Shown piece by piece: positions 1,719-37,704 of a DNA stretch of 64,000 nucleotides (its first letter is position 1; every line of letters starts with the position of its first letter). Below the pieces are notes generated by a model. The model made no database searches, was not told where the DNA came from, and saw only the letters and a list, made by a program, of their open reading frames with translations. This DNA comes from an uncultured Gammaproteobacteria bacterium (GTDB lineage: Bacteria > Patescibacteriota > Microgenomatia > Levybacterales > UBA12049), in NCBI GenBank assembly GCA_964507055.1, contig CAZDOJ010000001.1, positions 206,793 to 270,792 on the forward strand, in the 5' to 3' direction. The translations under genes and the position numbers were made by a program.

Positions 1719-2357
1719 CTAAGCAAGCAAGGTCTTTTTACTCTCTTCGACAAATTTTTTCCCATGACCTACCGATGTATTCACAAGTATACCTTTTGCA
1801 CATAATGGACAATCTGCTTCATCAAAAGTTTCAGTTTTCAGTTCAGCAAGCCATCTGAGTGGTGCTCCAACTAATTCACTTGTTACTTCTTGCGGGTTCT
1901 TATTTACCATGACACTCACGCCAACGACATTTCCACCGATTGCCTTAACACTTTCAACGACTTTCTTTACTGAGCCGCCGGTGGTTGTGAGATCTTCTAT
2001 AACCAAAACATTTTTGCCTGTTACGAGCCTGTCGTAGCCTCTTGTGAATACTTGGTTTTTGTCTGGAGTTTTTTCCGTATAGATTCCAAGCACTTCTTTC
2101 CCTTTGAGCTTACTCAAGTGATACGCTGTCCACGTTGATAGGATGATTCCTCCAAGTGCTGGAGCTGCGACGACATCTACATCAAGATCTTTGTTTTGTT
2201 CTGCAAAAAGTTCTCCCATTTTCGAAGTTGCCTCGGTGTGGGGATACAAGGCGTCTTTGTTAATATATGTTGCCATATGTCGGCCTGATGTTCCCACAAA
2301 ATGATCGTCTGTGAGGACTGCTTTGGTTTGTTTTAATAGTGCAAGTGCTTCATTCAT
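1719..2357 (-). CDS. pyrE: orotate phosphoribosyltransferase
   Basis: PRTase PRPP-binding motif VLVIEDLTTTGGS; ~210 aa; directly downstream of and overlapping pyrF by 4 nt (operon). Confidence 0.8.
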   Translation of the reverse strand: MNEALALLKQTKAVLTDDHFVGTSGRHMATYINKDALYPHTEATSKMGELFAEQNKDLDVDVVAAPALGGIILSTWTAYHLSKLKGKEVLGIYTEKTPDKNQVFTRGYDRLVTGKNVLVIEDLTTTGGSVKKVVESVKAIGGNVVGVSVMVNKNPQEVTSELVGAPLRWLAELKTETFDEADCPLCAKGILVNTSVGHGKKFVEESKKTLLA

Positions 2358-3208
2358 AGTCTATATTTATTTATCTCATCTCTTAGTTTTTGCGTTTCTT
2401 CGCGTGCTTTCTCTGCAAAGTCATTGCTGTCTGATGCAAAGATAATACCTCTTGAAGAATTAATAAGAAGTCCAGCAAATTCTGCATTGAGACCAGCTGC
2501 GACAAATGACTCGATATCTCCACCTTGGGCTCCAACACCCGGAACAAGAAATGTCATATTCCCTACTATCTCACGGATTCTTGTCAATTGTCCGGGGTAT
2601 GTTGCTCCCATAAACATCATTGCATTGGGATTCTTTCCGTGTTGCTTGACGAGCTCTTCGGCGACTACTTCATAAAGAGGCAAGCCATCCTCCATGATGA
2701 GTTCCTGAAATTCTTTTGCACCAGCGTTTGAGGAATGGCAACCTATAATAACGCCCTTCCCTTCACGTTCAAAAAAGGCATCAAGTGACTCAATACCCAT
2801 GTATGGCATAACAGTTATTGCGTCTGCACCGAAATAATCAAAAACGAGTTTTGCATATCCTTCATTGGTGTGTCCTATATCCCCTCTTTTGGCATCAATG
2901 ATAATTGGGATTTCTGGATATGTTCCATGAATGTATTCACAAGTCATTTTGAGTTCTCGTATCCCGACATCACCCCGAGCTTCATAAAAAGCAGGATTTG
3001 GCTTATATACCGCAACAAGATCATGTGTTGCATCAATTATAGCTTTATTAAATTCAAACTGAGGATTATCGAGTTTTTTAATATGCGCAGGAAGCTTATC
3101 GACATCTGAATCGAGTCCGACACACACAAGAGAATTATTTTGTTTTATCAGGTTAGTGAGTTTTGTGTGAAAATCCATAAATTGGAGCGATAACTCTTGC
3201 TTTTGCAA
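2354..3208 (-). CDS. pyrF: orotidine 5'-phosphate decarboxylase (long/type-2 form)
   Basis: OMPdecase motifs VCVGLDSD and IIIDAKRGDIGHT (Asp-Lys-x-x-Asp); 284 aa. Confidence 0.8.
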   Translation of the reverse strand: MQKQELSLQFMDFHTKLTNLIKQNNSLVCVGLDSDVDKLPAHIKKLDNPQFEFNKAIIDATHDLVAVYKPNPAFYEARGDVGIRELKMTCEYIHGTYPEIPIIIDAKRGDIGHTNEGYAKLVFDYFGADAITVMPYMGIESLDAFFEREGKGVIIGCHSSNAGAKEFQELIMEDGLPLYEVVAEELVKQHGKNPNAMMFMGATYPGQLTRIREIVGNMTFLVPGVGAQGGDIESFVAAGLNAEFAGLLINSSRGIIFASDSNDFAEKAREETQKLRDEINKYRL

Positions 3209-3260
3209 AAAGTTTCTTACCTACAATACCAAGGAGTTCGTTTCTGGTCAAGATAGAAGT

Positions 3261-4148
3261 TTATAATGTCTTATTAGGACCGTCCGTATCATTTTTTCCC
3301 GCCCAATCAATATCAAGTTTATCAAGATCTACCGGTTCAACTAAATCCGGCACACTATATAAATATCCCATTCCCCAAACTTTTTCGCTATCATTTGTTA
3401 TAGTTGATGATTTACCTGCAAATTCTTCTGTTGTTTGGTTTTCCTGAATTTTTCTAACTTTCTCTGCTGCTGTATCTATCACTTCTGTACTTTGTGGTTG
3501 GTCTTTTTGAATGGCTTCCTCTAATTGGAAATATTCGTTTGTGCGAATTGGAAGTTTTCCATCATTAGCCCCATGCCGTATATCAAAGAATTTTGTACGG
3601 CGTCCTGAGAGCATTGTTCTGAATGTTGCAAAGGCAATTTCATCGATATCTATACCTCTTCCCTCGATACGTCTTTCGTTTGCGATTGCAATTTCCCTTG
3701 CTAATCGTGCGTCTTCTTCTGCAATTAATGTAAGAAGTGGATCTGCTTTCCCTTCATATTTTTCTTGTTCCCTAAAACTCACTAGAGTAACGCCATCCTC
3801 TTGGTCGCTTCTTCCCGTTTTTTCTCTTGCATCCAATTCTCTTTTTCTCTCACTCGTCAGTGCAAATTCTGCCATTCCAGCACCTGATTTGGCAAAATCA
3901 ATTTGATGTGGAACTGCCTCAAATGCGTTGGGTAAAATAATCTTCCCATGAAAAGAATGTCGTTGCATTCCATCCTCATCTCTCGTGTGAAGCTCTAGCC
4001 CTCCTATTGTTCCCTCCGGGAGAATAACAAACTTACCAGGTACTTGTTGTGCTTGTACAGCTGATGCTCCATCTAATCGGCTTTTGAAACCCATAGCATC
4101 ACGTCCTGATTTCACAAATTCTTCAAATTTATTCATAATAGTTGACAA
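3261..4148 (-). CDS. hypothetical protein, paralog 1 of a trio with a conserved C-terminal peptide (...DIDWAGKNDTDGPNKTL)
   Basis: 295-aa ORF with no signal peptide or TM. Shares an internal core with the 5383-6618 product (LP.G..GLEL / ..PHQI....KSG[AS]GMA / R[RK]...RGI.[IV]DE). The acidic Trp-containing tail is shared with both downstream paralogs. Confidence 0.6.
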   Translation of the reverse strand: MSTIMNKFEEFVKSGRDAMGFKSRLDGASAVQAQQVPGKFVILPEGTIGGLELHTRDEDGMQRHSFHGKIILPNAFEAVPHQIDFAKSGAGMAEFALTSERKRELDAREKTGRSDQEDGVTLVSFREQEKYEGKADPLLTLIAEEDARLAREIAIANERRIEGRGIDIDEIAFATFRTMLSGRRTKFFDIRHGANDGKLPIRTNEYFQLEEAIQKDQPQSTEVIDTAAEKVRKIQENQTTEEFAGKSSTITNDSEKVWGMGYLYSVPDLVEPVDLDKLDIDWAGKNDTDGPNKTL

Positions 4149-4232
4149 TTTTATCAGAAATTAAAAAGTATATCAAATTATATCTTTTATCTCTTTGGCT
4201 CAAAGTTGCTGGATTGATCATAATCTCATAGA

Positions 4233-5363
4233 TTATAAAGAAGTACGTGGTCCACTTTCGCTTTCATTTTCTCCCGCCCAATCAACCTGTATTGCCTCTA
4301 TCGGAGCATCCAGGTCTTGGAAGTTTGGCATCTTCTTATTATCATAGAGATCGAGTATTCTCTGTGGTATTTTGTCTACAATCGTTGCTGCGTATTCATA
4401 AACAATTGGTCTTTGTGTCCCATCTGCCCCCGGCATTTTATGGATAGCTGGACACGATCCTTGGGTAAATACTGTTGTTTCTAAGGTCTTTCGTTGTTCG
4501 TCAAGTGGTTTTCCTTCTAATTCGATTGGATGTTGCTCCGCAAAATCATGGAGATGCGTACGCATAAGCTGGAATCCTACTCCATCACGATCTAAGAATT
4601 CATGTCTTACAGCTGCGGGAATGTCTTCTCCTGTCTCTGCAGCCTCTGTCACTACTTCTTGGAGAAACTTTCGGAAAGTTCCTATCCCAGTTGCAGCAAA
4701 GTACGTTCGTGTAAGAGATTTATGGGCTATAAAACCATGATTATCAAATGCTGCAAGGTTGCCAATTACATTAACCTGACTTTGAGGGAATGTATATGAT
4801 GTTTCTTCTAACGCACTTGCTAAGATCTCTTGTGTGTTCTCAAAATATCCATCGAGTGAATATATTTCATCATCAGGTATATCCGTGAGAGCCGTTGCTA
4901 CCTGCGGGAGTGCTCTTTCCATTTTCTCAGCATGAATTTTTCTATATGTTCCTCGAAACAGAGGATGGTGTATAAATAATGCTGCAAGTGTTGTTGTCCG
5001 TATATTGCTTTGGCGATAATGTTCTTGCCTCATGTCAAATCGGTCTCCATCTGATCTATATTTTGATTCTTCTGCACGAAGTTCTAAGCCATGATCTAAT
5101 AGCTCAGTTGCTGCTGCAAAAAAAAGGTCTTGTTCTGAATGCGAATCTTGTTCCTGGCTCGTAGATGGGTCTTTCCGATATTTTCCCTCGAGTCCTTTAA
5201 AGAATTGTAAGTCGTCTTTGTGTATCGTATCGAATTTGGGTGCATATCTCTTATACTCCTTGGGTAATAACACATGACCAAATCGTGGAATTGGTTCAGA
5301 TTTCACTGTATTAATCTTTTTCGCTGTTGGTGTTATTGGTTGTTCACTTTCAAAAAGTCTCAT
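4233..5363 (-). CDS. hypothetical protein, member 2 of the trio (C-terminus ...IQVDWAGENESESGPRTSL)
   Basis: Track ORF 4233-5405. The first 14 codons are the reverse reading of the upstream gene's tail, so the internal Met (MRLFESEQPITP) at ~5363 is preferred. The body is unrelated to the neighbours, but the last ~18 aa are conserved and the last 29 nt are identical to the 3' end of gene 5383-6618. Confidence 0.55.
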   Translation of the reverse strand: MRLFESEQPITPTAKKINTVKSEPIPRFGHVLLPKEYKRYAPKFDTIHKDDLQFFKGLEGKYRKDPSTSQEQDSHSEQDLFFAAATELLDHGLELRAEESKYRSDGDRFDMRQEHYRQSNIRTTTLAALFIHHPLFRGTYRKIHAEKMERALPQVATALTDIPDDEIYSLDGYFENTQEILASALEETSYTFPQSQVNVIGNLAAFDNHGFIAHKSLTRTYFAATGIGTFRKFLQEVVTEAAETGEDIPAAVRHEFLDRDGVGFQLMRTHLHDFAEQHPIELEGKPLDEQRKTLETTVFTQGSCPAIHKMPGADGTQRPIVYEYAATIVDKIPQRILDLYDNKKMPNFQDLDAPIEAIQVDWAGENESESGPRTSL

Positions 5364-5382
5364 ACTATCTCCTTTTAAACAT

Positions 5383-6618
5383 TTATAAAGAAGTACGTGG
5401 TCCACTTTCGCCTTCGTCCTCTCCAGACCAATCTATATCTGCTGAGAAAAGTGTGTCAGATAGTGCATCAGGTAATTGATACTGATCCGTTTCTGGCTTT
5501 TGGAATGCTTCCGAGCTGTCTCCAGGAGCACTGGCGTGTGGTGAGTTCGATCGTTCAGAACGTCGTGAACTCTTTCCCTCCACCTGTATCCCAAGTCCAC
5601 CCGGGAGTATTATGCTAATACCGTTGTCTGTAACATCGATATTTGGTACATATCCAGTATTTTCCGGCATGGGTCTTGGTTGATGATTTCCCCACCGTCT
5701 TGTACGTGTTGTATGTCCTTCAGATTGTTCAATATCAAATGCAGGTTCTTCTCCTGTGGCATTTATCCTTGCAGTAGCAATACCTTTAGAAAATTCTTCT
5801 AATACCTTTGCATGATCTTCTTTTGTAGTAACATATACTTCTTCAAGATCGTCAGTGTAAACAGGTAAATCTCCACCTCGACGTAAATCAACTATTCGTT
5901 TTCGTTCTCCTTGGATACCTATTACAAGATAAACTTTTGATACTTCATCAACTCTGATTCCTCTCGCTTCAAATTTCTTCTTATGAGGAGCTAATAGTCG
6001 TTGTGCTTCATATCGTTCATTCTTTTCGACAGTATCTTTATATAGGGGCTGTTTTTCTTCTAAGTTGTCGAATGCATCTCGATTTATTACTCCACCACCT
6101 ACAAAGCCTGGTGTTCCTTCAATTCTTGTAAACATTCCTAATCTTCCATAAAGTCGACTTATATTTAGCTCTGCTTCACGTAAGTGTGGATTAGATGGCA
6201 CAAGCAGTGCCATTCCAGAACCCGATTTATCCATAGAACTTATTTGATGCGGACTAACTTCAATTTCTCTGGGAAGTGTAATGATATTTGTTAGAGGTTG
6301 CGTTCTCTGTCCAGGATATTCGAGTAACAATCCAACACGAGTTTGAGGTGGAAGTAACAAGTACCGACCTTGTCTCCCTGCCCGTTGGACAGATGTTGCG
6401 TCAATTAAGCTTGGATTGGTACTTTCATGAAAGCTTCTTAAAGCTCGCTCAGCAAAATTTTGTCCGTTGGTTGGTTTTGGATTTGGTGCTCGATACTTCC
6501 CATACCTTGTGTACCAAGTGTGATCAACGGCTCCAACTGCTATAAATTCCGGAGCATGCTTCTCCATGAACCCTTCATGAATATCGGGAGCTTGTCTATC
6601 TATTTCTCGTCTTGCCAT
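5383..6618 (-). CDS. hypothetical protein, paralog 3 of the trio (C-terminus ...DIDWSGEDEGESGPRTSL)
   Basis: 411-aa ORF. Central region is homologous to the 3261-4148 product. A long S/E/P/R-rich low-complexity linker precedes the conserved C-terminal peptide. Confidence 0.6.
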   Translation of the reverse strand: MARREIDRQAPDIHEGFMEKHAPEFIAVGAVDHTWYTRYGKYRAPNPKPTNGQNFAERALRSFHESTNPSLIDATSVQRAGRQGRYLLLPPQTRVGLLLEYPGQRTQPLTNIITLPREIEVSPHQISSMDKSGSGMALLVPSNPHLREAELNISRLYGRLGMFTRIEGTPGFVGGGVINRDAFDNLEEKQPLYKDTVEKNERYEAQRLLAPHKKKFEARGIRVDEVSKVYLVIGIQGERKRIVDLRRGGDLPVYTDDLEEVYVTTKEDHAKVLEEFSKGIATARINATGEEPAFDIEQSEGHTTRTRRWGNHQPRPMPENTGYVPNIDVTDNGISIILPGGLGIQVEGKSSRRSERSNSPHASAPGDSSEAFQKPETDQYQLPDALSDTLFSADIDWSGEDEGESGPRTSL

Positions 6619-6667
6619 AATGGGGCATTATAACAAATAAATAGAGGCAGGACAAACTTATGGGACG

Positions 6668-7732
6668 TTACTTTTGGGATTTAATTTCCTGTGCCATCAA
6701 TGGGTTCCACATAGCACCGGTTGCAGACATGACTGCATCAGCACCAGATTTGCGGAATTGTTCATAATCATCAACCGTTGTTACTCCTCCAACTCCTATT
6801 AATGCAAAATCTAAATCATTTTCATCTCGAAGACGCTTGAGTCTTTCGATCATTTCGATTCCCGCCCATTTAATGGGAGCTCCACAAACACCACTAATTG
6901 CTCTTCCTGCTCCTGGCAGTGCTTGTTTGCCTTCTTTATCAATAATTTTTGATGGGATAGTATTTATTGCGGAAATACCTTGGATGAGCTTTCCGACTGC
7001 GTCAATAAGGTTGATAAGTTGCTCTTGTTCTTGAAAATATGCAATCTTTATTATTAATGGTGTGTCTCCAATTTCGTCCTTTATTGCTGTAACAACTTGT
7101 TGTGTTCGCTCTAAGTCAAAACAAAGAAGATGTGCAGTGCCTTCATTTGGGCAACTTAGGTTTACCTCAAGTACTTTAGCACCTGTTTCTTTCACTAATC
7201 TTGCAGCGTCTGCAAAGTCTTTAATATATGCTTTGATATTACCATCAGCATTGGTCGTCCCCTGAAAACTTCCAACGACCACTTGTCCAGTCTTTGCATA
7301 TGCTACTGTTTCTTGCAAATCTTTTTGCCAAAAATCAGGATCAAATGAGGGTACGCCGAATGAATTAGTAATTGCCAATGGCTGTTCATAATTATGATCC
7401 GCAACCAATCCCATTGCTCCTTTTTCTGGTGTGAGATCGCCTTCAACTTTGACTGCTAAAACATTTGGCCATGGTGCACACGTATATTTTTGTGTGCGGA
7501 CCGTTTTATACACTGGGATATCAAAACCTTTGTCTAAAGCAGCTTTCACAAATTTTCCATTCACTAATGGACCGGCTGGTATTCCAAATGGTGTAAAGAC
7601 TTTCTGACCCAAAAAATCAAATTGAGGTTTACCTTTTTGCTCGTAAACTTTACCATCGGTAAAAGCTCCAAAAGGTCCTTCATTAAAATTCTCTTCGTAG
7701 GATTTTTCCGGGTCGTAGAAGGGAGTGTTCAT
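6668..7732 (-). CDS. pyrD: dihydroorotate dehydrogenase, class 1-like (catalytic Cys)
   Basis: Active-site motif LEVNLSCPN (Cys base = class 1), FMN-binding C-terminal GGV..VDDYEQF..GA.AV; N-terminal FTPFGIPAGP. 354 aa, so a DPD/PreA-like relative cannot be excluded. Confidence 0.7.
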   Translation of the reverse strand: MNTPFYDPEKSYEENFNEGPFGAFTDGKVYEQKGKPQFDFLGQKVFTPFGIPAGPLVNGKFVKAALDKGFDIPVYKTVRTQKYTCAPWPNVLAVKVEGDLTPEKGAMGLVADHNYEQPLAITNSFGVPSFDPDFWQKDLQETVAYAKTGQVVVGSFQGTTNADGNIKAYIKDFADAARLVKETGAKVLEVNLSCPNEGTAHLLCFDLERTQQVVTAIKDEIGDTPLIIKIAYFQEQEQLINLIDAVGKLIQGISAINTIPSKIIDKEGKQALPGAGRAISGVCGAPIKWAGIEMIERLKRLRDENDLDFALIGVGGVTTVDDYEQFRKSGADAVMSATGAMWNPLMAQEIKSQK

Positions 7733-7797
7733 ATCTTCTGAATGTACAAGGTTTAGCTTTAGTTGTCAATTGCTACGTACCATGTTAAAATTTCCTC

Positions 7798-8058
7798 ATG
7801 GCATCGAAAGAATTTGAGCAGTCACAAGAAATGGTTGCAGTTGTGAGAAAAGAATTAGCTGCATTAAAAGAAGCAATTAAAAAAAGCGAACTCCCTCATG
7901 AAGAAAAGACTGCAATCTTGAATTCTCATGAAGTTATAGAACTCTTTATCGAAAAGAAAGACGATGCAACGCAGCAGGCAGTTGCTTTTGAAAAGGGAAA
8001 AAAGCCGACGCAACCACTTGATGTTACTCCAGGAGATCACACTGTAGTTGAACTCTAA
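7798..8058 (+). CDS. hypothetical small protein (86 aa)
   Basis: Intact ORF in an intergenic position between divergent genes; charged and helical-looking with no recognisable motif. Confidence 0.35.
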   Translation: MASKEFEQSQEMVAVVRKELAALKEAIKKSELPHEEKTAILNSHEVIELFIEKKDDATQQAVAFEKGKKPTQPLDVTPGDHTVVEL

Positions 8059-8110
8059 CGATTCAGTCATTGTTTTCTATTTTTAGAAAATCTATAATAA
8101 AATAAGAAAA

Positions 8111-9091
8111 ATGGCAAATACAGTCCCCTTTTTAGATCTCAAATCAGAAATTATCCAGAAAATTAAGAAAAATGGTGGTTGGGTCAATGCACATGCACAT
8201 TTAGATAGAGCATACACAATTACCCCGGAAAAGTTCAAGCAAGCCAATGCATTACGAGAAGAAAAATGGCAGCTCAATGCCGAACTTCGTAAGACTTCAA
8301 CGGTTAATCAGATTTATGATCGGATGGCCAAAGCAACCGAATTACTTTTGTCGCAAGGAGTTGTCGCCACCGCGTCATTTATCGATGTCGATCCGGATGT
8401 GAAAGACAAAGCAATTAAAGCTGCACAAAAAGTTCGAGAGAAATTCAAAGGCCAAATGGAATATAAGTTCATCAATCAGTCCAGTTATGGAATTCTTACT
8501 AAAGAAACACGTGAATGGTATGAGATTGGAACAGAGTTTGTCGATATCATCGGTGGATTACTTAAATCCGCTCATCCGAAAGAGAATGAATATTTAGATA
8601 TCCTTATGGAATCAGCGAAAAGTAAAAAGAAAATGATTCATATCCATATTGATGAAAATAATATCCCTGAAGAGAAAGAAACAGAATTTGTAGCAAGAAA
8701 AACGATTGAGCATGGATTGGAAGGTAAAGTCATTGGCATTCATGGGATATCAATCAATACACATCCTAAAGAGTATCGTGAAGAAGTCTATGATTTGATG
8801 GTCAAAGCGAAAATCATTATGGTTGCTTGTCCTATTTCATGGGCAAATGCTCGACGAAATGAAACACTCGCACCAATCCATAATGCTGTCACTCCACTTG
8901 ATGAGATGGCTCCTCGTGGCATTCCAGTCGCAGTTGGGATCGATAACCTTTATGACATCTTCATGCCGTTTAATGACGGAAATATATGGAATGATTTACG
9001 TTTACTTATGGAAGCAAATAGATACTATGATATTAATGCAATGGTAGAAGTTGCTACAACCAATGGACGTAGAGCTTTGGGAATAAAGTAG
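8111..9091 (+). CDS. amidohydrolase-superfamily protein, cytosine-deaminase-like
   Basis: N-terminal metal-ligand HxH (VNAHAHLD), mid His (MIHIHIDE), later His (GIHGISINTH) and C-terminal Asp region (VGIDNLYD). Overall order matches CodA-type deaminases. Confidence 0.5.
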   Translation: MANTVPFLDLKSEIIQKIKKNGGWVNAHAHLDRAYTITPEKFKQANALREEKWQLNAELRKTSTVNQIYDRMAKATELLLSQGVVATASFIDVDPDVKDKAIKAAQKVREKFKGQMEYKFINQSSYGILTKETREWYEIGTEFVDIIGGLLKSAHPKENEYLDILMESAKSKKKMIHIHIDENNIPEEKETEFVARKTIEHGLEGKVIGIHGISINTHPKEYREEVYDLMVKAKIIMVACPISWANARRNETLAPIHNAVTPLDEMAPRGIPVAVGIDNLYDIFMPFNDGNIWNDLRLLMEANRYYDINAMVEVATTNGRRALGIK

Positions 9092-9111
9092 AGATTGCTG
9101 TACCGTTTGAT

Positions 9112-9942
9112 TTAATTTTCCCAGCCTTCCTCTAGAACATTGGTAAGGCAATGCGGGCCCCCTCCGGATTTCATGAATTCGCCCATTTCCACTTCAACTG
9201 ATGTATAGCTCAAGTCTTCAATCTTTTTCTTAAACGTAGGGTTGCCTGATTGATGGACTACATGATGATCTGTCACAACCGAGTTGGCTGCAAAGCCATT
9301 TGCTTCTTCTTGTGTGAACTCAATAAGATTTGGCACTAATTTTTTGAGCACTTCCCTACTCTTTTCTGAAAATGCAGGCGGATAGTAAAATGCGGTGTCA
9401 TTATTTAACGGTAAAAATCCGACATCTAAGTGGTAGAACTTTGGATCAACTATTTCAATTGGAATAACTTCGATGTTGAGAAGTTTACTGACCGCATCAC
9501 AGGTTTCTTTATTGGCTCGATATCCAAGTCCAACTAATAATTTATCTCCCCAAAAGAATGAATCTCCATTACCTTCGAGGTAAATATCATCAGGAAGATG
9601 TTTAATAGTGTATCCATTATTTCGAAACCACTGCTCGTAGTGTGGGGTCTCGCCTTTGCGTTCATCACACCAAAATCTGCTTAGTAAAACTGTTTTATCT
9701 TTTACGATTCCCTGATCTGTCGCAAAAACCATATCTGGAACACCTCTCTGTTGTTTGATGACTTCGACTTCTATGTCTTGGGATTCATATGCTTTGACAA
9801 GATCGTTCCACTCGTTCATAGCTTTTTTACCATTAATAGTGCCGGGTTTCATCCAAGGATTGATGGAATAATCGAGGGTATCAAAGTACGTAGGTTCGCA
9901 CATCAGAACCTTTTTGATGAGTTTGTGTTTCATAGCCGCCAA
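9112..9942 (-). CDS. amidinotransferase-superfamily enzyme (DDAH/arginine-deiminase/amidinotransferase fold)
   Basis: C-terminal catalytic-Cys motif GGGPHCLT; FYHLDVGF; ~276 aa. Confidence 0.6.
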   Translation of the reverse strand: MAAMKHKLIKKVLMCEPTYFDTLDYSINPWMKPGTINGKKAMNEWNDLVKAYESQDIEVEVIKQQRGVPDMVFATDQGIVKDKTVLLSRFWCDERKGETPHYEQWFRNNGYTIKHLPDDIYLEGNGDSFFWGDKLLVGLGYRANKETCDAVSKLLNIEVIPIEIVDPKFYHLDVGFLPLNNDTAFYYPPAFSEKSREVLKKLVPNLIEFTQEEANGFAANSVVTDHHVVHQSGNPTFKKKIEDLSYTSVEVEMGEFMKSGGGPHCLTNVLEEGWEN

Positions 9943-9946
9943 TTAA

Positions 9947-11560
9947 TTATACTCTTGCTGCCTGAAGTTTGTTAACAAAATCCTGGGCAACGGGGACACT
10001 TGTGATGAGATGGGTGTTATGTTCTATAGCTTTTTGGCGAATTATTTTGCCATCTGTTTGAGTCTTTTCTCGTTCCATAGGGACATTAATAATTAAATCA
10101 AAGCGCTCAACATTCATAAGATCTCCAAGATTTGGCTTCAAATGAGGCTCTGAAATTTTGTGGACTGCAATTGCTTCAATAGCATTTGTCTTAAGGAACT
10201 TATGAGTTTTGTATGTTGCGTAGATCTTGTAACCCATATCCTGAAGCTTTTTCACAGTTGGAAGCAATTTTACTTTATTTGACCGTTTACCGACTGAAAT
10301 AAGTACTGTTTTCTCTGATCGTTGTGCAAGTTTCATCGGAAGTGTATAGAATTCTATGAAGCCTGCTGAAGCGTTTTGGTTGAGGCCTTCGGAAACCATG
10401 AACGTGGCAAGCTTTTCATCAAAAATTGTATTGGGTGTTTCAAGTGCCATGACTTGTACAACACCTTTGTATAATTTGAGTGTCACTTTACCTGTAACCT
10501 TTTGATTGACGTTATCAATGAATGCATTTAAGTCATTCATCAATGGTTCGTACCAAAGTGCACCGTAACAAAGATATGCCCACTTGGCATCAACAGTCGC
10601 TTTAAATTCATTCTCAGTTCGTGTACAAACATAATGTTCAAGCTTTTCATGAGCTGAGATAATAATTTCAGCAGCCGGTGCTTCAAAGACATCTCGGATC
10701 TTCATACCAATGACACGATCTTCTATGTGAATATTGATACCTACTCCATGCTTTCCTCCTATGCCGTTTAGTTTCATAATCAGATCAGCAAGTTTCATTT
10801 GATCTCCATTGAGTGCAACGGGGATACCTTTTACAAATTCAAGCGTTAACATTTCTGGTTTATCGGGAGCTTTTTCAGGAAGCGTGCTTACAACAAGAAT
10901 TTTCTCAAGTGGTGGAATTTTTGATGGATCTTCTATCTCTCCCCCTTCGCCTGATGATCCCCACATATTCTCATCGTATGAGTAAGGTTTATCAACTGTA
11001 TGAGGGACAGGGATGCCATGTTCTTTTGCATATGCAAGCTCTTCAAGTCGTCCCATACTCCATTCTCGGATTGGTGCGATTATCTTGATATCAGGATTCA
11101 ATGCAAGTGCTGAACCCTCGATACGGATTTGATCGTTACCGCGACCTGTGCATCCGTGGGCGATTGCGTCAGCACCTTCCATCGCAGCAATTTTCACTGC
11201 CCATTTCGCGAGAAGTGGGCGGCCAATTGCTGTTGCGAGTCTGTATTTATGTTGATAATTTGCATTTGCTTTGATTCCTTTGGAAATATATTCGTTGGCA
11301 AATTCTTCTTTGGCATCGATAACATATGTTTTAACTGCACCGAGTTTGATAGCTTTTTGTTTGATTGCTTCAAGATCATCGACTACCTGTCCAATGTCTA
11401 TTGTGAGTGCGACAACTTCTGCTTTGTATTCTTCTTGGATCCATTTGAGAAGTACTGAGGTATCGAGTCCGCCGGAGTAAAGTAGTACCACTTTCTTCAC
11501 TTCACCTTTTTTACCTTCATATGAAGCGACTTTATGGTATGTAGAGTTATTTTTATCCAT
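9947..11560 (-). CDS. argG: argininosuccinate synthase fused to a C-terminal MGS-like domain
   Basis: N-terminal PP-loop VVLLYSGGLDTS and the ArgG body. The extra ~130 aa C-terminal segment (TVLISVGKRSNK...YKIYATYKTHKFL...) resembles the methylglyoxal-synthase-like domain seen in CarB and PurH. Confidence 0.8.
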   Translation of the reverse strand: MDKNNSTYHKVASYEGKKGEVKKVVLLYSGGLDTSVLLKWIQEEYKAEVVALTIDIGQVVDDLEAIKQKAIKLGAVKTYVIDAKEEFANEYISKGIKANANYQHKYRLATAIGRPLLAKWAVKIAAMEGADAIAHGCTGRGNDQIRIEGSALALNPDIKIIAPIREWSMGRLEELAYAKEHGIPVPHTVDKPYSYDENMWGSSGEGGEIEDPSKIPPLEKILVVSTLPEKAPDKPEMLTLEFVKGIPVALNGDQMKLADLIMKLNGIGGKHGVGINIHIEDRVIGMKIRDVFEAPAAEIIISAHEKLEHYVCTRTENEFKATVDAKWAYLCYGALWYEPLMNDLNAFIDNVNQKVTGKVTLKLYKGVVQVMALETPNTIFDEKLATFMVSEGLNQNASAGFIEFYTLPMKLAQRSEKTVLISVGKRSNKVKLLPTVKKLQDMGYKIYATYKTHKFLKTNAIEAIAVHKISEPHLKPNLGDLMNVERFDLIINVPMEREKTQTDGKIIRQKAIEHNTHLITSVPVAQDFVNKLQAARV

Positions 11561-11650
11561 TTTTAATAATTTAAAGAAAATTTACTAAAATTATGCATTT
11601 TAAAGCAGAGTTTTATTCAAATTTTTCTTTATTATGGTAATAATATAGAA

Positions 11651-11692
11651 AAATGAATATTGTGTCAACAGGTGAATTGTAATAATTTGTCA
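11651..11692. promoter_or_regulatory. two adjacent imperfect ARG-box-like TGAAT half-site pairs in the divergent argG / amidinotransferase intergenic region
   Basis: aaTGAATATTGTGTCAac and ggTGAATTGTAATAATTt, starts 20 nt apart (typical ArgR operators are two 18-bp boxes separated by 2-3 nt). Match to consensus TnTGAATwwwwATTCAnw is partial. Confidence 0.25.
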
Positions 11693-11711
11693 TATTTAGT
11701 ACACTTGCGCT

Positions 11712-12638
11712 ATGAAGCAATCGGCCGACACAATTGTCATGGTTTCACCTGATCACTTTGGCTTTAATCCCCAAACTGCTGCGACTAATCCATATATGCA
11801 TACACCCGAGTCTATGCATAAGAGTGCTCAAGATATTCGCAATCTTGCTTTAAAAGAATTTGATCAAATGGTTGCTGTTCTTCGTGCAAAAGGTATTGAT
11901 GTACTAGTTTTGCCAAGTCGATCGGATGTTGTTACACCTGATGCAGTTTTTCCAAATAATTGGTTCTCTCACCATGAAGATGGACGTTTGGTCCTTTATC
12001 CTATGCTGACGCCAAATCGAAGACAAGAGCGACAATGTGATGCTCTTGTTGAATTGCTCCGAAGTGCACAGATAGAGCATCCAGCAATTGTTGATTTGAG
12101 TGTAAGTGAAGAACAAGGATTAATTCTTGAATCAACAGGAAGTATGGTTTTGGATCGAGTTCATAAGGTTGTCTTTGCTATGGCATCTCCGCGAACCAAT
12201 GAAGAGTTATTTCAAAAATGGTGCACACAAATGGGATATGAAGGCATATATATAAAAACGCCAAAAAGTCATCGTAATGAGGTTTATCATACAAATCTGC
12301 TTATGAGTATCGGAACAGAGTTTGCAGTGGTTTGTCTTGAAGTTATTGAAAATGAAACGGAACAAAAGCATGTACGAGAAAAACTTGAAAGTTTGGACAA
12401 AGACCTGATCGAGATTTCTCTTGAGCAAGTCTATTCCTATTGTGGAAATATTCTTGAAGTTCGTTCAAAGAGTGGGCAAACATATATTGTTATGTCCAAG
12501 ACTGCTGAATCTGTATTTACTGTAGATCAAAGAGAACATTTGGAAAAGTATGGCGAGATTATTCGTTTGGATATTCCAGTTATTGAAGAAGTCGGTGGCG
12601 GTGGTGTCCGTTGTATGATGGCAGAAATTTTTGTTTAA
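11712..12638 (+). CDS. arginine-deiminase-related amidinotransferase-superfamily hydrolase (citrulline-forming or citrulline-utilising type)
   Basis: N-terminal MVSPDHFGFNP, C-terminal GGGGVRCMMAEIF (catalytic Cys); 308 aa. Confidence 0.6.
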   Translation: MKQSADTIVMVSPDHFGFNPQTAATNPYMHTPESMHKSAQDIRNLALKEFDQMVAVLRAKGIDVLVLPSRSDVVTPDAVFPNNWFSHHEDGRLVLYPMLTPNRRQERQCDALVELLRSAQIEHPAIVDLSVSEEQGLILESTGSMVLDRVHKVVFAMASPRTNEELFQKWCTQMGYEGIYIKTPKSHRNEVYHTNLLMSIGTEFAVVCLEVIENETEQKHVREKLESLDKDLIEISLEQVYSYCGNILEVRSKSGQTYIVMSKTAESVFTVDQREHLEKYGEIIRLDIPVIEEVGGGGVRCMMAEIFV

Positions 12639-19397: not shown

Positions 19398-19934
19398 TTA
19401 GAAGCCCTCTTTGTTGAAGCGTTCGATGCATTCATTGATGATGCCCTTTGCTTCTTCAACGTCTCCCCAACCAAGTACTTTGGTTGTTCCTGGTTTTTTC
19501 AGATCTTTATAATGTGCAAAATGGAATTCGATTTGTTGCTGCCATCTTTTACCAAGGTCATCAAGTGTGTTGACACTATCACCTGTATGTCGATCATCAG
19601 CTGGAACGCAGACGATCTTGTAATCCATTTCTCCGTCATCTTCAAAATTGAAAATACCGATGACTTTGGACTTAACGAGGACGCCTGTTGGAATTGGTTC
19701 ATGACATACAAGAAGGACGTCCAATTCATCACCATCTTCATCTTTGGTTGCTGGGATAAATCCGTAATTGACTGGCTTTGCAAAGATCGCTGGTTCTGCT
19801 CGATCAAGCATAAAAATGCCATGTTCTCGATCGTATTCAATTTTTAATGAGGATCCTTGTGGGATATCAACAATTGCATTAACCCATCCTTCATTTGGGC
19901 TCCCTGGTGTAAGTATTTTATTAAAATCTGGCAT
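19398..19934 (-). CDS. ppa: inorganic pyrophosphatase (family I)
   Basis: DELDVLV, KIVCVPADD and HFFAHYKDL-type motifs. Track ORF extends to 20072 (TTG) but overlaps gyrB; the internal ATG (MPDFNKIL) is preferred. Confidence 0.85.
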   Translation of the reverse strand: MPDFNKILTPGSPNEGWVNAIVDIPQGSSLKIEYDREHGIFMLDRAEPAIFAKPVNYGFIPATKDEDGDELDVLLVCHEPIPTGVLVKSKVIGIFNFEDDGEMDYKIVCVPADDRHTGDSVNTLDDLGKRWQQQIEFHFAHYKDLKKPGTTKVLGWGDVEEAKGIINECIERFNKEGF

Positions 19935-26722: not shown

Positions 26723-28021
26723 TTATTCTTTATTTTGAGGTTGATTTGGTATATATGTTTTTACAAGCTCTGAGGCATCTGCAATAACTTCTTTTCGATC
26801 TTCGATGATTTTTGCAAGAAATACAATCGCTCCCAATGCCACAGCAAAAAAGAATGGTGTGTATTGTAATGCAAAGTCCACTGAGAAGATTTTTACATAA
26901 GCTGCGAAGATGAGAATACTTGTAACTCGTCCAATGTTTAGTACCATTTCAAGATCAAAAACATACATATACTTATTGTCCTGGTTTACATTCTCGCGAT
27001 CTACGAGATCCAGGATGACAGAGTTTGTCTCTGCAAAAAGTAGCTGCTGAGCAAGTGTCAAAAAGGCAATGAAGATGAAAATTCCGGTTGGATTAAAGTA
27101 AAAAGCCAATGAAGCAGCGGCAAGTACGAATAAAGCTATACTCAGAGCAATTACATGGAGACGATACTTTGTATTTAATGATCGTGCCACAGAATACATG
27201 ATAACCCCTGAAATGATCGCCGATACTGACTGCACAATTCCTAAGGCATCTTCCTTACCCACGTAAATCAATACGATGATAATGGGAAGAAACATCGACA
27301 TACCTGTTAACAACCCGAGCAATGCAGTAATGCCACGGGCACAATTCCATTGATGAGTGCCATTCTGTAAGACAATATTTGATATGACTGGTGTTTTGAT
27401 ATGAATCTTTTTAATAAGTGATCCTATGTAGAATGAGATGAGTATCATTCCCACTGCCACGAGATTGTATCCTTGCTGTGCTGAATACAGATTATGATTC
27501 ATTCCAAAGACAAGCAATGCCCCAATAGTCAAAGGAATAATAATATTACTTATTGTTTGGGTAATAAAATCAATGCTTGAGAAATACATTCTATTTGATG
27601 AATTCGTCAGTTCTATAGTCAAAAGATTTTTATTGGAAAAAAATACTCCCGAACTCAATCCAAACCCAAGCCCAAAAAGTACGACCGAAAGTTGATCAAC
27701 AATCGGAAAAAAGATGAGAAGTCCTGCAAATCCAGCTCTCAGTACCGTTCCGAGAAAGTATAGTCGTTTGACTGACAAGTGTTTGAGCAGTTGTCCATTG
27801 AAATAAAAACCAATTGGAAGTGAACTGAAATACGCTAAATTAAATAATGCGACGATCATCACATCTTGTGTTTCTCGCCAGAGAAATGCATTGATAAAGA
27901 TTGCAGCAATAGGATGAATGATATTGTAGAGGAAAACAGATAAAGCAAATTTTTGTCCCTGATTACTTAATCGTTGAAACTGTTTATGTTCATTCTTGAA
28001 GAGTAATTTTAAAGGTCCCAC
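26723..28021 (-). CDS. MFS-type transporter (paralog A)
   Basis: 12 predicted TM segments; clearly paralogous to the neighbouring gene (N-terminal ...LYN.I.P...IF.NAFLWR.TQD...). The MFS assignment is tentative; no D-R-x-G-R-[KR]-type loop motif was checked. Confidence 0.55.
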   Translation of the reverse strand: MGPLKLLFKNEHKQFQRLSNQGQKFALSVFLYNIIHPIAAIFINAFLWRETQDVMIVALFNLAYFSSLPIGFYFNGQLLKHLSVKRLYFLGTVLRAGFAGLLIFFPIVDQLSVVLFGLGFGLSSGVFFSNKNLLTIELTNSSNRMYFSSIDFITQTISNIIIPLTIGALLVFGMNHNLYSAQQGYNLVAVGMILISFYIGSLIKKIHIKTPVISNIVLQNGTHQWNCARGITALLGLLTGMSMFLPIIIVLIYVGKEDALGIVQSVSAIISGVIMYSVARSLNTKYRLHVIALSIALFVLAAASLAFYFNPTGIFIFIAFLTLAQQLLFAETNSVILDLVDRENVNQDNKYMYVFDLEMVLNIGRVTSILIFAAYVKIFSVDFALQYTPFFFAVALGAIVFLAKIIEDRKEVIADASELVKTYIPNQPQNKE

Positions 28022-28052
28022 TCATCCATGCTAATTGGTTTCAAGGTTGAAA

Positions 28053-29285
28053 TCAAGCCTGAGGTCTTTCAATCGATTTTGCCAAAAGGACGAGGAGTAA
28101 AGGTGCGAGAGCGAAAATAATTGGAGTATATCTGAGTGCGAATGCATCACCTACGATAAGGACCAATACCATAAATGTAAAGATTGCAGTATTTCTTCCA
28201 ATATTAAAAAAGACTTCAATATCACATAAATGTGCATAGTGCACGCTCGTATCTTTATTCTTATCAATAAGATCCATGCTTAATGATTGCATAGCAATCC
28301 ATAAAAGTGGGTTGATGAGGATTTGTGTCACATAAAATACCATTACCCCAATGCTCGAAAAGAAAATACTAAAAAAGCTTGCACCTAATAATCCGATAAT
28401 AAAAGTTGCTTTAAGAAGGAGTAATCGTTTTCCAATATCAAATGATTTACCCACATAATACACAGCAGCGGTTGTAATTATTGCTGCAACTGTTTGCACA
28501 GTTCCAAGTGTTTCTTCTTTACCAAGATATGATAGTACAAGTAAGGTAGGAATAAGTATCGTGATACCATTGAGGAATCCTCTGATAATCTGAATTAAGC
28601 GGTATTTATTCCAAGTTGGACTGCTTGTCTTTAAGGTCAACTTCGCTGGTGCGGTGATCTCTACAGTAAGAGTTCGTAATAGTAATCCTACTGCTCCTGC
28701 AACCAACAACATCACAATACCAATCAATTGGTATGCTTGGATTTCTGAATAAAGATTGATCTTACTTCCTAAGACGATATACCAACCCACAATGATTGGG
28801 ATAATGATTTCAAAGATATTTTTGGTCACAAGTTCCATACCTGTGAAATAGATTCGATTATTCGACTCTGTAGTTTTTAAGGTGAGAAGGTTTCTATTGG
28901 ACCAGAAAAGACCTGAACTGATTCCGTATATTAATCCAAAAATTGCTAAGGATTCGTAGTTTAATCGAGGGAGAAATGTAAGTGAAACTACAACTATACA
29001 GCTGATAGATAATCCAAGTACGAAAAGAACTTTCGATTGCAACTTTCGTAACAATAATCCATTTATATAAAATCCCAAGGGAATTCCGAAGAAAAGTGCC
29101 AGATTGAAAAAAGCTACAAGTGCAAGGTCTTGTGTCTGTCTCCAAAGAAATGCATTGACGAATATACCAAAAATTGGATTGATGACATTGTATAAATGAA
29201 TAGCAAGCAACAACTGTTTACTCTGTGGATTAAGTCTTTTGAGATGCTCTGTTTCTTTCTGAATTATACTGCGGATCCAATGCAT
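28053..29285 (-). CDS. MFS-type transporter (paralog B)
   Basis: Same architecture as paralog A; tandem duplication. Confidence 0.55.
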   Translation of the reverse strand: MHWIRSIIQKETEHLKRLNPQSKQLLLAIHLYNVINPIFGIFVNAFLWRQTQDLALVAFFNLALFFGIPLGFYINGLLLRKLQSKVLFVLGLSISCIVVVSLTFLPRLNYESLAIFGLIYGISSGLFWSNRNLLTLKTTESNNRIYFTGMELVTKNIFEIIIPIIVGWYIVLGSKINLYSEIQAYQLIGIVMLLVAGAVGLLLRTLTVEITAPAKLTLKTSSPTWNKYRLIQIIRGFLNGITILIPTLLVLSYLGKEETLGTVQTVAAIITTAAVYYVGKSFDIGKRLLLLKATFIIGLLGASFFSIFFSSIGVMVFYVTQILINPLLWIAMQSLSMDLIDKNKDTSVHYAHLCDIEVFFNIGRNTAIFTFMVLVLIVGDAFALRYTPIIFALAPLLLVLLAKSIERPQA

Positions 29286-29993: not shown

Positions 29994-30061
29994 AGCGGTA
30001 TTGCTTATTATACTCCATTCTTTTCTTGACTTGCCTGAGCTTATTTCATACTATTAGACTA

Positions 30062-31801: not shown

Positions 31802-31820
31802 ACTACTATTTAACTAGACC

Positions 31821-32888
31821 ATGGATATTCAGGAATTACTTACACTCACAATTAAGAACAAGGCATCCGATTTGCATTTGCTTGTTGGGTTGCCTCCGAC
31901 GTTTCGTATCGACGGTGCGTTGCGTTATCTGACGACATATCCCGCATTAAAGCCTGATGATCTTGAAACAATGATCTTTTCTCTTTTGACACCAGAGCAA
32001 AAGGAGATATTACTCTCCAATAAAGAATTAGACTTCTCCTTCGGTTATAAGGGCAAAACTGCAACAGATGTCGGACGTTTCCGTATTAATGCATACTTCC
32101 AAAAGGGTTCATTGTCAGCAGCTTTTCGTTTCCTTGCTCCTGGTGTTCGTACGTTGGAAGATCTTGGTTTGCCAAAGGTCGTTCATGACTTTGCCAAAAT
32201 GAAACAAGGTATGGTACTTGTAACCGGTCCAACAGGTCATGGAAAGTCGAGTACACTTGCTGCAATTATTAATGAAATTAACGTCAACAAATCTTGTCAC
32301 ATCCTGACAATTGAAGATCCTATCGAGTATGTCTATCCAAAGGGTAATAGTATTATCTCCCAGCGTGAAATGGGAATTGATACGCATTCTTGGGCACTTG
32401 CCCTTCGTTCATCGCTTCGTGAAGATCCAGACGTTGTGCTTATCGGAGAAATGCGTGATCCAGAAACAATGCAAGCCGCTATTACACTTGCTGAAACAGG
32501 CCATTTGGTTCTTTCGACATTACATACCAATTCAGCAGCACAAAGTATTGATCGTATCGTCGATGCTTTTTCGGCTGATCAACGCTCTCAAATCCGAATT
32601 CAACTTGCAGCGACACTTAAAGGAATCGTTTCTCAGCGTTTGATCCCAAAGATTGGTGGCGGTCGTGTCCCAGCAGTTGAAGTTCTTTTGGGGACGCCAG
32701 CTGTTTCAGCAAATATCCGGGATGGGAAATCTCATTTGATAGATTCAGTCATTCAGACTTCAAAAGACTTGGGTATGATTACTATTGATGAATCATTGGC
32801 CCAACTTGTAAAGAACGGTATTGTTACTATGGATGACGCGAAGGCATATGCTTTGCGTGAAACTGAATTGGCACGATTAGCCGGTTAA
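31821..32888 (+). CDS. pilT: twitching-motility retraction ATPase PilT
   Basis: Walker A GPTGHGKSST, shorter PilT/PilU-type N-terminus (ASDLHLLVG), His/Asp boxes; 355 aa without a Zn finger. Confidence 0.9.
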   Translation: MDIQELLTLTIKNKASDLHLLVGLPPTFRIDGALRYLTTYPALKPDDLETMIFSLLTPEQKEILLSNKELDFSFGYKGKTATDVGRFRINAYFQKGSLSAAFRFLAPGVRTLEDLGLPKVVHDFAKMKQGMVLVTGPTGHGKSSTLAAIINEINVNKSCHILTIEDPIEYVYPKGNSIISQREMGIDTHSWALALRSSLREDPDVVLIGEMRDPETMQAAITLAETGHLVLSTLHTNSAAQSIDRIVDAFSADQRSQIRIQLAATLKGIVSQRLIPKIGGGRVPAVEVLLGTPAVSANIRDGKSHLIDSVIQTSKDLGMITIDESLAQLVKNGIVTMDDAKAYALRETELARLAG

Positions 32889-32899
32889 ACAGAATATGT

Positions 32900-37261: not shown

Positions 37262-37374
37262 ATTTTATTTGATTAAAATCTTTGTGAGAAATAGTATTTA
37301 TTACATCTGTAAGATACTGTTAAACAAGAACCCGCTCAATGTGTAACGGTGAGGTAATGTCTCAGAATTTTCAT

Positions 37375-37662: not shown

Positions 37663-37704
37663 AAATTAGAATCTAAGTTGTAAGCAGATTATCTGCTTGT
37701 TATA

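Follow-up and report, generated by a model that had tools for sequence, protein, structure and literature searches.

Why would a bacterium fuse its argininosuccinate synthetase to a regulatory domain of carbamoyl phosphate synthetase (CPS), and which pathway would the resulting protein serve? This question is raised by a 64-kb stretch of DNA (hereafter, the window; contig CAZDOJ010000001.1 of assembly GCA_964507055.1, positions 206,793 to 270,792) from the candidate phyla radiation (CPR), or Patescibacteria, a group that holds a large share of bacterial diversity and whose patchy nucleotide and amino acid pathways are a long-standing puzzle. The gene at positions 9947-11560 of the window, on the minus strand, encodes a 537-amino acid protein in which an ArgG core is followed by a methylglyoxal synthase-like (MGS) domain of the type found in CarB. 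Enzyme and domain are both known, in a combination and context that are new. Sequence comparisons firmly support the assignment of this protein, ArgG-MGS, as a true argininosuccinate synthetase with a CarB-type effector domain and a predicted intact nucleotide-phosphate pocket, and the gene neighborhoods of its relatives firmly support a functional tie to a pyrimidine operon across the CPR. Fusion and operon together suggest an undescribed link between the use of citrulline or arginine and the production of pyrimidines.

The ArgG-MGS fusion

An earlier note on this DNA had described three adjacent open reading frames (ORFs) as a citrulline-centered module, and all three are present at exactly the positions it gave (ORF list). 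Its reading of the central one as ArgG with a C-terminal MGS domain is borne out by a Pfam search, which finds Arginosuc_synth (amino acids 23-184; E = 6e-66), Arginosuc_syn_C (193-411; E = 1e-66) and MGS (PF02142, 432-520; E = 2.6e-16 and 60 bits, where the gathering score is 24.1) in 9947-11560. The identical three domains occur in all 120 homologues among the matches listed (71-91% identity). The fusion is not an assembly artifact, because these homologues share it and the identical window protein is found on eight contigs from several sequencing runs.

The catalytic core (amino acids 1-416; 10313-11560, minus strand) is an argininosuccinate synthetase by NCBIfam model NF001770, with which ArgG-MGS scores 510 bits (cutoff 334); the score with TIGR00032 is 464 bits (cutoff 268). 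The core matches Thermus thermophilus ArgG (PDB 1J1Z) over the full length with 361 bits, and is 58-67% identical to unfused ArgGs of argG-argH clusters. When 74 fused sequences were compared with unfused and PDB controls, the consensus was unchanged in 99 of the 101 columns that are invariant in the controls. The window protein keeps all positions that contact ATP, aspartate and citrulline, except that Tyr270 (Thermus numbering) is replaced by Phe, a change found in its own subgroup (15 of the 74 fused proteins). We take the contact residues, as given in UniProt and HAMAP, to be S8-S14, Y84, T116, N120, D121, R124, S173, S182, E258 and Y270 of the Thermus protein. An altered substrate specificity of the fused enzymes was considered and rejected, because no alignment column is systematically switched.

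The C-terminal domain (amino acids 418-537; 9950-10309, minus strand) is of the CarB/CPS1 allosteric type, and aligns to positions 932-1049 of CarB (NCBIfam). Its closest solved relatives are the allosteric domain of human CPS1 (2YVQ; E = 1e-8) and residues 945-1043 of E. coli CarB (1BXR). An AlphaFold2 model of ArgG-MGS (mean predicted local distance difference test score, pLDDT, 83.5; predicted template modeling score 0.71) places a well-folded alpha/beta domain at 418-537 after a linker of lower confidence, with a pLDDT of about 90 over most of the domain.

Effector-pocket residues were compared in an alignment anchored on E. coli CarB numbering and comprising 73 ArgG-MGS proteins and 9 CarBs from CPR. 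All 73 and all 9 proteins carry, without exception, the equivalents of K954, T974, T977 and K993, which have a role in UMP binding (PMC6245113). Among the ArgG-MGS proteins, the equivalent of T1042 is kept in 70/73 and that of N1015 in 68/73. In CarB, inhibition by UMP and its binding depend critically on T977 and K993, and T1042 forms a hydrogen bond with ornithine (PMC6245113). The earlier note had proposed that the domain may be regulatory, and conservation of the UMP/IMP pocket residues makes this the best-supported reading of its probable role.

A full-library search with the MGS domain reveals its other fusion partners. Domains of this CarB type are also fused to AsnA-like proteins, to dihydroorotate dehydrogenase-like (DHOD-like) proteins and to GNAT proteins. 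The chains found combine an AsnA-like domain, MGS and DHO_dh, with or without a phosphoribosyltransferase (PRTase); MGS and DHO_dh; or GNAT and MGS. The four phosphate-pocket residues are invariant in every MGS host protein examined, with the exception of one Thr to Ser change at 977 among the four proteins of one cluster (c58). The GNAT fusion is protein P0369, an acetyltransferase joined to the same CarB-type domain. Stand-alone GNAT genes (cluster c41) lie just downstream of an amidohydrolase gene, introduced below as AMIDO, in several Saccharimonadia-type loci (L012:13417-13965, L046, L050, L054 and L066). The human CPS1 version of the MGS domain binds N-acetylglutamate.

Gene neighborhoods across the CPR

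Eighty genome loci were fetched by ArgG, of which 73 carry the fusion. Neighboring genes were clustered blind and then annotated with Pfam and NCBIfam; counts refer to genes within 10 kb of the fusion gene. Fusion loci are found in Levy-, Roizman-, Gottesman- and Woykebacteria, Saccharimonadales and Paceibacterota. The closest relatives of the window are Levybacteria (Levyibacteriota, of the Microgenomates), including locus L002, which is 93% identical, and L006, which is on a closed 1.14-Mb chromosome. Many metagenome-assembled genome (MAG) records of the TPA and ENA type are labeled 'uncultured Gammaproteobacteria' (L001, L004, L005, L014-L018 and others). Their ArgG-MGS loci share synteny and 70-91% identity with those of Levybacteria and other CPR, and these labels look wrong.

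The most conserved partner of ArgG-MGS is AMIDO, an amidohydrolase of the PRK06886 family. Either AMIDO or a substitute amidohydrolase (cluster c61) is found in 60/73 fused loci, and at least one late pyrimidine gene (DHOD-like, PyrD, PyrE or PyrF) in 48/73. A gene for an ArgZ-like hydrolase is present in 25/73, and PurA or PrsA in 23/73. AMIDO is the gene directly downstream of ArgG-MGS in 31 loci; in 24 others this place is taken by the ArgZ-like gene, with AMIDO next in 16 of them. The gaps are mostly -4 to +25 bp, and those between ArgG-MGS and the ArgZ-like gene mostly -4 to +31 bp. ArgG-MGS thus heads strings of pyrimidine genes that are separated by short or overlapping gaps. The order is ArgG-MGS, AMIDO, AsnA-like-MGS, DHOD-like and PyrE/PyrF in L023, L031 and L037, and ArgG-MGS, ArgZ-like, an AMIDO-DHOD fusion, PyrF and PyrE in L022 and L029.

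The window has the whole conserved partner set on its left flank (1719-9942). The citrulline-centered module of three genes was therefore drawn too small: the third of these genes, ctlX, is found in just 3/73 fused loci, and the conserved partners at 1719-9091 lie beyond the module's limits. Pyrimidine metabolism is at least as central to the system as citrulline is. A literature search on the ArgG-MGS fusion, on ArgG in CPR pyrimidine metabolism and on a route from argininosuccinate to carbamoyl-aspartate found nothing in the library searched.

The absence of argH, argF and arcC from the window, which the earlier note had reported, was confirmed by tblastn and Pfam scans of the window ORFs. 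Queries from close relatives for ArgH, ArgF, PyrB, CarA, CarB and PyrC-like proteins gave no tblastn match in the 64 kb, apart from the tail of CarB, which matches the MGS domain of ArgG. No AA_kinase (carbamate kinase) domain was found among the window ORFs scanned with Pfam. A plain arg operon just beyond the window was also considered and rejected, as the nearest relatives, L001 and L002, have no argH, argF or arcC within 10 kb.

Elsewhere, genes of these pathways do occur near the fusion. Lyase-family genes near the fusion encode ArgH in L005, L041 and L066, and a protein closest to aspartate ammonia-lyase in L032. ArgH is directly upstream of the fusion in L005 and is on the same contig as the fusion in at least three further cases, and PyrB shares a contig with the fusion in at least three cases. 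In L066, ArgH, ArgF and an ArgZ-like gene are clustered with ArgG-MGS. A canonical string of CarA, CarB, PyrB, PyrC and PyrD directly follows ArgG-MGS and AMIDO in L021, L030 and L036, and L005 contains PyrB, CarA, CarB and PyrC. However, only 8 of the 48 fused loci with late pyrimidine genes have CarA, CarB, PyrB or PyrC in their neighborhoods, and L033 resembles L021 minus exactly the CarA-CarB-PyrB-PyrC block. Two unfused ArgG loci (L079 and L080) have argF (OTCace) directly upstream. The ArgH proteins of CPR (P0121-P0240, relatives of L005:8695-9882) are short, at about 392-405 amino acids, and ASL_C2 (PF14698) is found in 1 of 120 among the matches listed.

In the window, argG-MGS and ctlX are transcribed divergently from a 151-bp intergenic region (11561-11711). 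This region contains the best sigma-70-like match in positions 1-13 kb (11668-11640, minus strand, 11/12), just upstream of argG-MGS. The match is weak evidence for a promoter, as the total of such sites between 1 and 13 kb is not above that in shuffled controls.

Pyrimidine-type partners

AMIDO is encoded at 8111-9091 (plus strand) and scores 419 bits with NCBIfam NF005365 (PRK06886; cutoff 340). Its nearest solved structures are AtzC and cytosine deaminase, and the metal ligands (HxH, H, H and D) are invariant over 58 aligned sequences, with the exception of one that has gaps. The position of the catalytic Glu of cytosine deaminase (HxxE) is Glu in the window protein and 8 relatives, and Gln in 49 of the 58. 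With the NCBIfam cytosine deaminase model, AMIDO scores only 88 bits (cutoff 403). The variation between Glu and Gln weakens the case for a classical deaminase. A role as a plain dihydroorotase is not favored either, because the protein is cytosine deaminase/AtzC-like, because its substitute is of deaminase type, and because a PyrC-like protein (c40) coexists with it in L005, L021, L030 and L036. A tblastn search against plasmids gave only matches of at most 28% identity, to AtzC and cytosine deaminases, with no informative orthologue context.

The substitute, c61, resembles 8-oxoguanine deaminase and TRZ/ATZ-type amidohydrolases (446 bits, below the cutoff of 532) and is not a dihydroorotase. 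It fills the AMIDO slot directly after ArgG-MGS where AMIDO is missing, in L024 (12175-13545), L028 and L044, with gaps of -4, -4 and +1 bp, and it also follows the partial ArgG ORF of L077. In two independent MAGs, AMIDO and the DHOD-like protein are encoded as one chain of 715-737 amino acids, with AMIDO at the N terminus (L022:12537-14750 and L029:12487-14634). This fusion implies that the two enzymes catalyze consecutive steps.

The DHOD-like gene of the window (6668-7732, minus strand) encodes a divergent flavoprotein that matches Pfam DHO_dh (E = 1e-19, 71 bits against 27), and every PDB match is a dihydroorotate dehydrogenase. With the best NCBIfam pyrD model it scores 69 bits (cutoff 269), whereas canonical PyrD proteins of relatives score 313-322 bits. 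The protein aligns along its entire length, with 40-50% identity, to the DHO_dh portion of AsnA-like-MGS-DHO_dh(-PRTase) chains; in the MGS fusion chains, the DHO_dh portion is an orthologue of this divergent protein and not of canonical PyrD. PyrF, the orotidine-5'-phosphate decarboxylase, is encoded at 2354-3208 (minus strand; TIGR02127, pyrF_sub2, 240 bits, cutoff 110.6). The gene for a PyrE-like orotate phosphoribosyltransferase overlaps it by 4 bp (1719-2357, minus strand); this protein matches Pfam Pribosyltran and scores 121 bits with pyrE_Therm, below the cutoff of 150. The PyrF cluster and the PyrE-like cluster are each found in 39 fused loci.

Some Roizman- and Gottesmanbacteria have a further enzyme between AMIDO and the DHOD-like protein (L023:12619-14109, L031, L037 and L049). 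It comprises an AsnA-like core, which is derived from AsnRS and lacks the anticodon-binding domain, and a CarB-type MGS domain of its own. In other organisms this AsnA-like-MGS protein is further fused to DHO_dh and PRTase domains, in a single chain of up to 1134 amino acids (proteins P0372, P0432 and P0382).

Three ORFs (5383-6618, 4233-5405 and 3261-4148, all on the minus strand) are inserted between the DHOD-like gene and pyrF, and none has a Pfam or NCBIfam match. All three end in a common motif, D-W-[SA]-G-E-x-E-x-E-S-G-P-R-T-S-L, which is looser in the third, and two are paralogous (26% identity over 229 amino acids). It might serve as a signal for sorting or secretion. Because the ORFs at 3261-6618 have no homologue in the 80 related loci, yet contig L082, with an identical ArgG-MGS, has three unannotated genes at the same position, the insertion is specific to this strain and its closest copies.

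Flanking enzymes of the guanidino-modifying superfamily

The ArgZ-like gene (9112-9942, minus strand, 276 amino acids) immediately follows argG-MGS; a second, independent prediction has it start at 9933 and encode 273 amino acids. The earlier note had placed its product among the amidinotransferases, and membership in this guanidino-group-modifying (GME) superfamily stands, with a more exact affinity: the closest relative is the dihydrolase domain of ArgZ/AgrE (181 bits with Sll1336/ArgZ in the PDB, versus 56 bits with the best dimethylarginine dimethylaminohydrolase, DDAH). The protein is below every NCBIfam cutoff, with 242 bits for the Mtb-type DDAH model (300), 222 for Arg_dihydro (450) and 223 for bifunctional ArgZ (1025). 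The catalytic Cys and Asp are kept in 27/27 family members beside ArgG-MGS, and the His in 26/27. Asn71 of ArgZ, which we take to have a functional role, is replaced by Asp in the window protein and in all 27 members; PDB entry 6JUZ also differs from wild-type ArgZ at residue 71. Because it has a single domain, Asp at the Asn71 position and a score below the cutoff, this enzyme is probably a mono-hydrolase of deiminase-like activity, or acts on another guanidine such as argininosuccinate.

The gene on the other side of argG-MGS (11712-12638, plus strand, 308 amino acids) had been read as an arginine deiminase or DDAH-like enzyme, an assignment that its motifs contradict. The product has the GME fold and scores 366 bits with the NCBIfam model for CtlX (NF046062, cutoff 334). 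The CtlX signature consists of FPNN and HTN in place of the guanidinium-binding aspartates of FTRD and HLD (Price et al. 2022, PMC9007349). The window translation contains DAVFPNNW, VYHTNL and GGGGVRCM, the last with the catalytic Cys. As these motifs replace both guanidinium-binding aspartates, the substrate is predicted to have a ureido group, and the protein is a putative citrullinase (citrulline to ornithine, CO2 and NH3) and a lineage-specific accessory. We know of no biochemical demonstration of citrullinase activity for CtlX. Its gene neighbors are the divergent argG-MGS and a GT2 glycosyltransferase, and the ornithine-consuming ocd and aruFG genes are not adjacent. The earlier proposal of a flow from arginine to citrulline and on to argininosuccinate stays plausible as a local reading.

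Possible roles of the fusion

We favor a reading in which ArgG-MGS is a nucleotide-regulated argininosuccinate synthetase coupled to pyrimidine metabolism, at the crossroad of the arginine and pyrimidine pathways, and give it a probability of roughly 0.45. The enzyme would convert citrulline, aspartate and ATP into argininosuccinate, AMP and pyrophosphate. The forward direction is favored because a soluble pyrophosphatase is encoded in the window (19398-19934). ArgG has acquired the CPS allosteric domain and leads an operon, conserved across the CPR, that otherwise encodes pyrimidine-pathway enzymes. Its MGS domain may bind a nucleotide effector of the UMP/IMP type and raise or lower ArgG activity. 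The use of aspartate and of the carbamoyl unit of citrulline would thereby be coupled to pyrimidine status, as CarB is through this domain at the arginine/pyrimidine crossroad. In the lineage of the window, the Asp variant of the ArgZ-like enzyme most likely supplies citrulline from arginine, and CtlX might drain excess citrulline to ornithine. Argininosuccinate would pass to an ArgH encoded elsewhere; in some relatives, an ArgH gene adjoins the fusion. The domain identities, the intact catalytic and effector-site residues and the conserved operon are direct observations, and effector identity and sign, hydrolase substrates and the fate of argininosuccinate are what this reading adds.

Several observations weigh against this reading. 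The residues R951, Y975 and K976 at the pocket are specific to the ArgG-MGS family, in which they are near-invariant (72/73), and are absent from CarB; because of these extra residues, the effector may be other than UMP or IMP. A lyase gene is found within two genes downstream in 5/5 unfused ArgG loci, whereas a Lyase_1 family gene occurs in only 6/73 fused loci, and ArgH itself in about 5 of the 73. The tight coupling of ArgG-MGS with the amidohydrolase, with or without the ArgZ-like enzyme between them, is left unexplained. Also, if ArgH is present, an arginine deiminase operating alongside it and ArgG would create a futile cycle.

Alternatively, ArgG-MGS might catalyze the first step of UMP synthesis, in an assembly of the pyrimidine ring that proceeds without carbamoyl phosphate, aspartate transcarbamoylase or dihydroorotase. 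We consider this main rival less probable, with nonetheless a credible chance that the fusion operon represents a new route to pyrimidines. Where the ArgZ-like Asp variant is present, it would form citrulline from arginine; citrulline would be ligated to aspartate. PRK06886 or c61, the ArgZ-like enzyme, or both would then attack argininosuccinate hydrolytically at its guanidino carbon, on the side of ornithine, to give ornithine and N-carbamoyl-aspartate, or dihydroorotate after ring closure. In some lineages the AsnA-like-MGS protein would close the ring with ATP; that it is such a dihydroorotate synthetase is speculation. The DHOD-like protein, PyrE and PyrF would complete UMP, and the MGS domains would provide feedback by the end-product nucleotide at ATP-consuming steps, as in CarB. 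In such a scheme every operon gene has a role, and gene order (L023, L031, L037, L022 and L029) fits the order of steps. The fusions join AMIDO to the DHOD-like protein, and AsnA-like-MGS to the DHOD-like protein and a PRTase, and a deaminase-type protein replaces the missing AMIDO in L024, L028, L044 and L077. AtzC, the nearest solved relative of AMIDO, hydrolytically displaces an alkylamine from a guanidine-like carbon. The rarity of early pyrimidine genes beside the late ones (8/48) and the comparison of L033 with L021 point in the same direction, and this would be the only combination of ArgG with a guanidine hydrolase that is not futile. A precedent is the use of arginine or citrulline as the source of the pyrimidine carbamoyl group in Thermococcales that lack CPS (PMC13260591). 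However, no known enzyme hydrolyzes argininosuccinate to ornithine and carbamoyl-aspartate, and the presumed catalytic Glu of AMIDO is Gln in most family members. The complete CarA-CarB-PyrB-PyrC-PyrD strings directly downstream of ArgG-MGS and AMIDO in L021, L030 and L036 indicate that the two proteins are not simple replacements. ArgH adjoins the fusion in L005 and is present on some other contigs, canonical PyrB is very common in CPR, and the early genes may lie elsewhere, beyond the neighborhoods examined.

The coupling to pyrimidine genes would be coincidental if the locus were an arginine and citrulline turnover module, or a loop like the ornithine-ammonia cycle, that serves nitrogen handling. 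The ArgZ-like enzyme would degrade arginine, CtlX would degrade citrulline, and ArgG, with an ArgH encoded elsewhere, would rebuild arginine. All three local enzymes plausibly act on citrulline or arginine, ArgZ is reported to operate alongside ArgF, ArgG and ArgH in the ornithine-ammonia cycle of cyanobacteria, and L066 clusters the corresponding genes. We nevertheless regard this as improbable: CtlX and the ArgZ-like enzyme accompany only a minority of the fusions, what is conserved beside the fusion is a set of pyrimidine genes with a deaminase-type hydrolase, a minimal symbiont that lives by fermentation could ill afford an ATP-wasting cycle, the ArgZ-like enzyme lacks both Asn71 and the C-terminal domain of ArgZ, and a CarB-type nucleotide domain on ArgG would be left unexplained. 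An equally small chance attaches to the idea that the MGS domain has a structural or docking role, mediating oligomerization or a multi-enzyme complex among the proteins that carry it, and does not sense a ligand. The same module is indeed found on several enzymes of one pathway (ArgG, the AsnA-like and DHOD-like proteins, GNAT and CarB), and that of ArgG is closer to that of the AsnA-like enzyme (median identity 41%) than to that of CPR CarBs (30%), but the near-perfect invariance of the phosphate pocket across hosts is hard to explain without ligand binding. Finally, ArgG might run in reverse for energy, converting argininosuccinate, AMP and pyrophosphate into citrulline, aspartate and ATP, with CtlX pulling the reaction by removal of citrulline. 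The reaction is reversible in principle, and Thermococcus carries out an ATP-yielding conversion of arginine to citrulline by way of a different enzyme (PMC13260591). This proposal is very improbable, given that the gene for a soluble inorganic pyrophosphatase lies 8 kb from argG-MGS, that the window has no ArgH to form argininosuccinate from arginine and fumarate, and that CtlX is rare among relatives.

The fusion shows that a known regulatory module, that of CarB, has been redeployed over several enzymes of one pathway (ArgG and the AsnA-like, DHOD-like and GNAT proteins). If nucleotide control of ArgG is all that the fusion provides, it would represent a new mode of allosteric control of arginine synthesis. 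A testable idea is that cells without carAB, pyrB and pyrC feed DHOD, PyrE and PyrF by using host-derived arginine or citrulline as the carbamoyl donor. Such a route, if true, would give access to an essential metabolite in a new way, and metagenome-based metabolic reconstructions would have to score 'incomplete' pyrimidine pathways differently.

Other features of the window

The pyrophosphatase gene named above (minus strand, PF00719) lies between gyrB and gyrA and encodes 178 amino acids, or 224 in the mechanical ORF list. A PLP-dependent decarboxylase of the Orn/DAP/Arg family is encoded at 42184-43308 (minus strand; LysA-like, 186 bits, below the cutoff of 298), adjoining a SET-domain protein (41590-42177, minus strand). 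If the decarboxylase uses ornithine, it would consume a predicted by-product of the module. Genes of a type IV pilus occur at 30026-34105 and 46081-51354 and encode a PilB-like ATPase, a PilT-like ATPase, PilC, a prepilin peptidase and PilM, and two tandem MFS transporters are encoded at 26723-29285. Pilus genes and such transporters are typical of the episymbiotic lifestyle of CPR. G+C content is 0.32-0.35 at 36001-44000 and 0.30 at 54001-56000, versus about 0.39 elsewhere in the window, and no ORF of at least 150 amino acids is found between 54800 and 56103. Scans for tRNAs and Rfam families detected no RNA elements in the window.

Comparison with known systems

ArgG-MGS shares with canonical type 1 ArgG (1J1Z; HAMAP MF_00005) the whole core, including the PP-loop SGGLDTS, the aspartate, citrulline and ATP contacts and the C-terminal helix. 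In contrast to canonical ArgG, it has an extra C-terminal domain of about 120 amino acids, is rarely beside argH or argF, and leads pyrimidine-type operons. With the CPS allosteric domain (residues 933-1073 of E. coli CarB; human CPS1, 2YVQ), which is its closest solved relative, the MGS domain shares the Pfam family, the phosphate-pocket residues for UMP/IMP and Thr1042. However, its host is here a PP-loop ATP pyrophosphatase and not an ATP-grasp synthetase, its identity with the domain of E. coli is just 23%, and it has its own R951, Y975 and K976.

The partner enzymes also depart from their models. AMIDO has the metal ligands and overall fold family of the AtzC/cytosine deaminase subgroup, and in the window the Glu of HxDE as well, but identity is only about 24%, Gln replaces Glu in most members, and the genomic context is one of ArgG-MGS and pyrimidine genes. 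The best structural relatives of the ArgZ-like protein are the ArgZ/AgrE enzymes (Sll1336 and Alr4995) of the cyanobacterial ornithine-ammonia cycle, with which it shares the catalytic Cys, His and Asp, whereas the window protein has a single domain, without the C-terminal domain of ArgZ, and FATD in place of FTAN. The window CtlX passes the cutoff and contains the FPNN and HTN motifs of the family described by Price et al. (PMC9007349). Proteobacterial ctlX genes are beside ocd or aruFG, whereas the window gene is paired divergently with argG-MGS.

For the pathway as a whole, the closest parallel is found in Thermococcales without CPS (PMC13260591), in which arginine or citrulline, not CPS, provides the pyrimidine carbamoyl group of a reduced pathway. 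In Thermococcus, the arginine synthetase pathway uses ArcE, then ornithine transcarbamoylase in reverse and then PyrB, and so proceeds through carbamoyl phosphate (PMC13260591). In contrast, the hypothetical CPR route would bypass carbamoyl phosphate by way of argininosuccinate.

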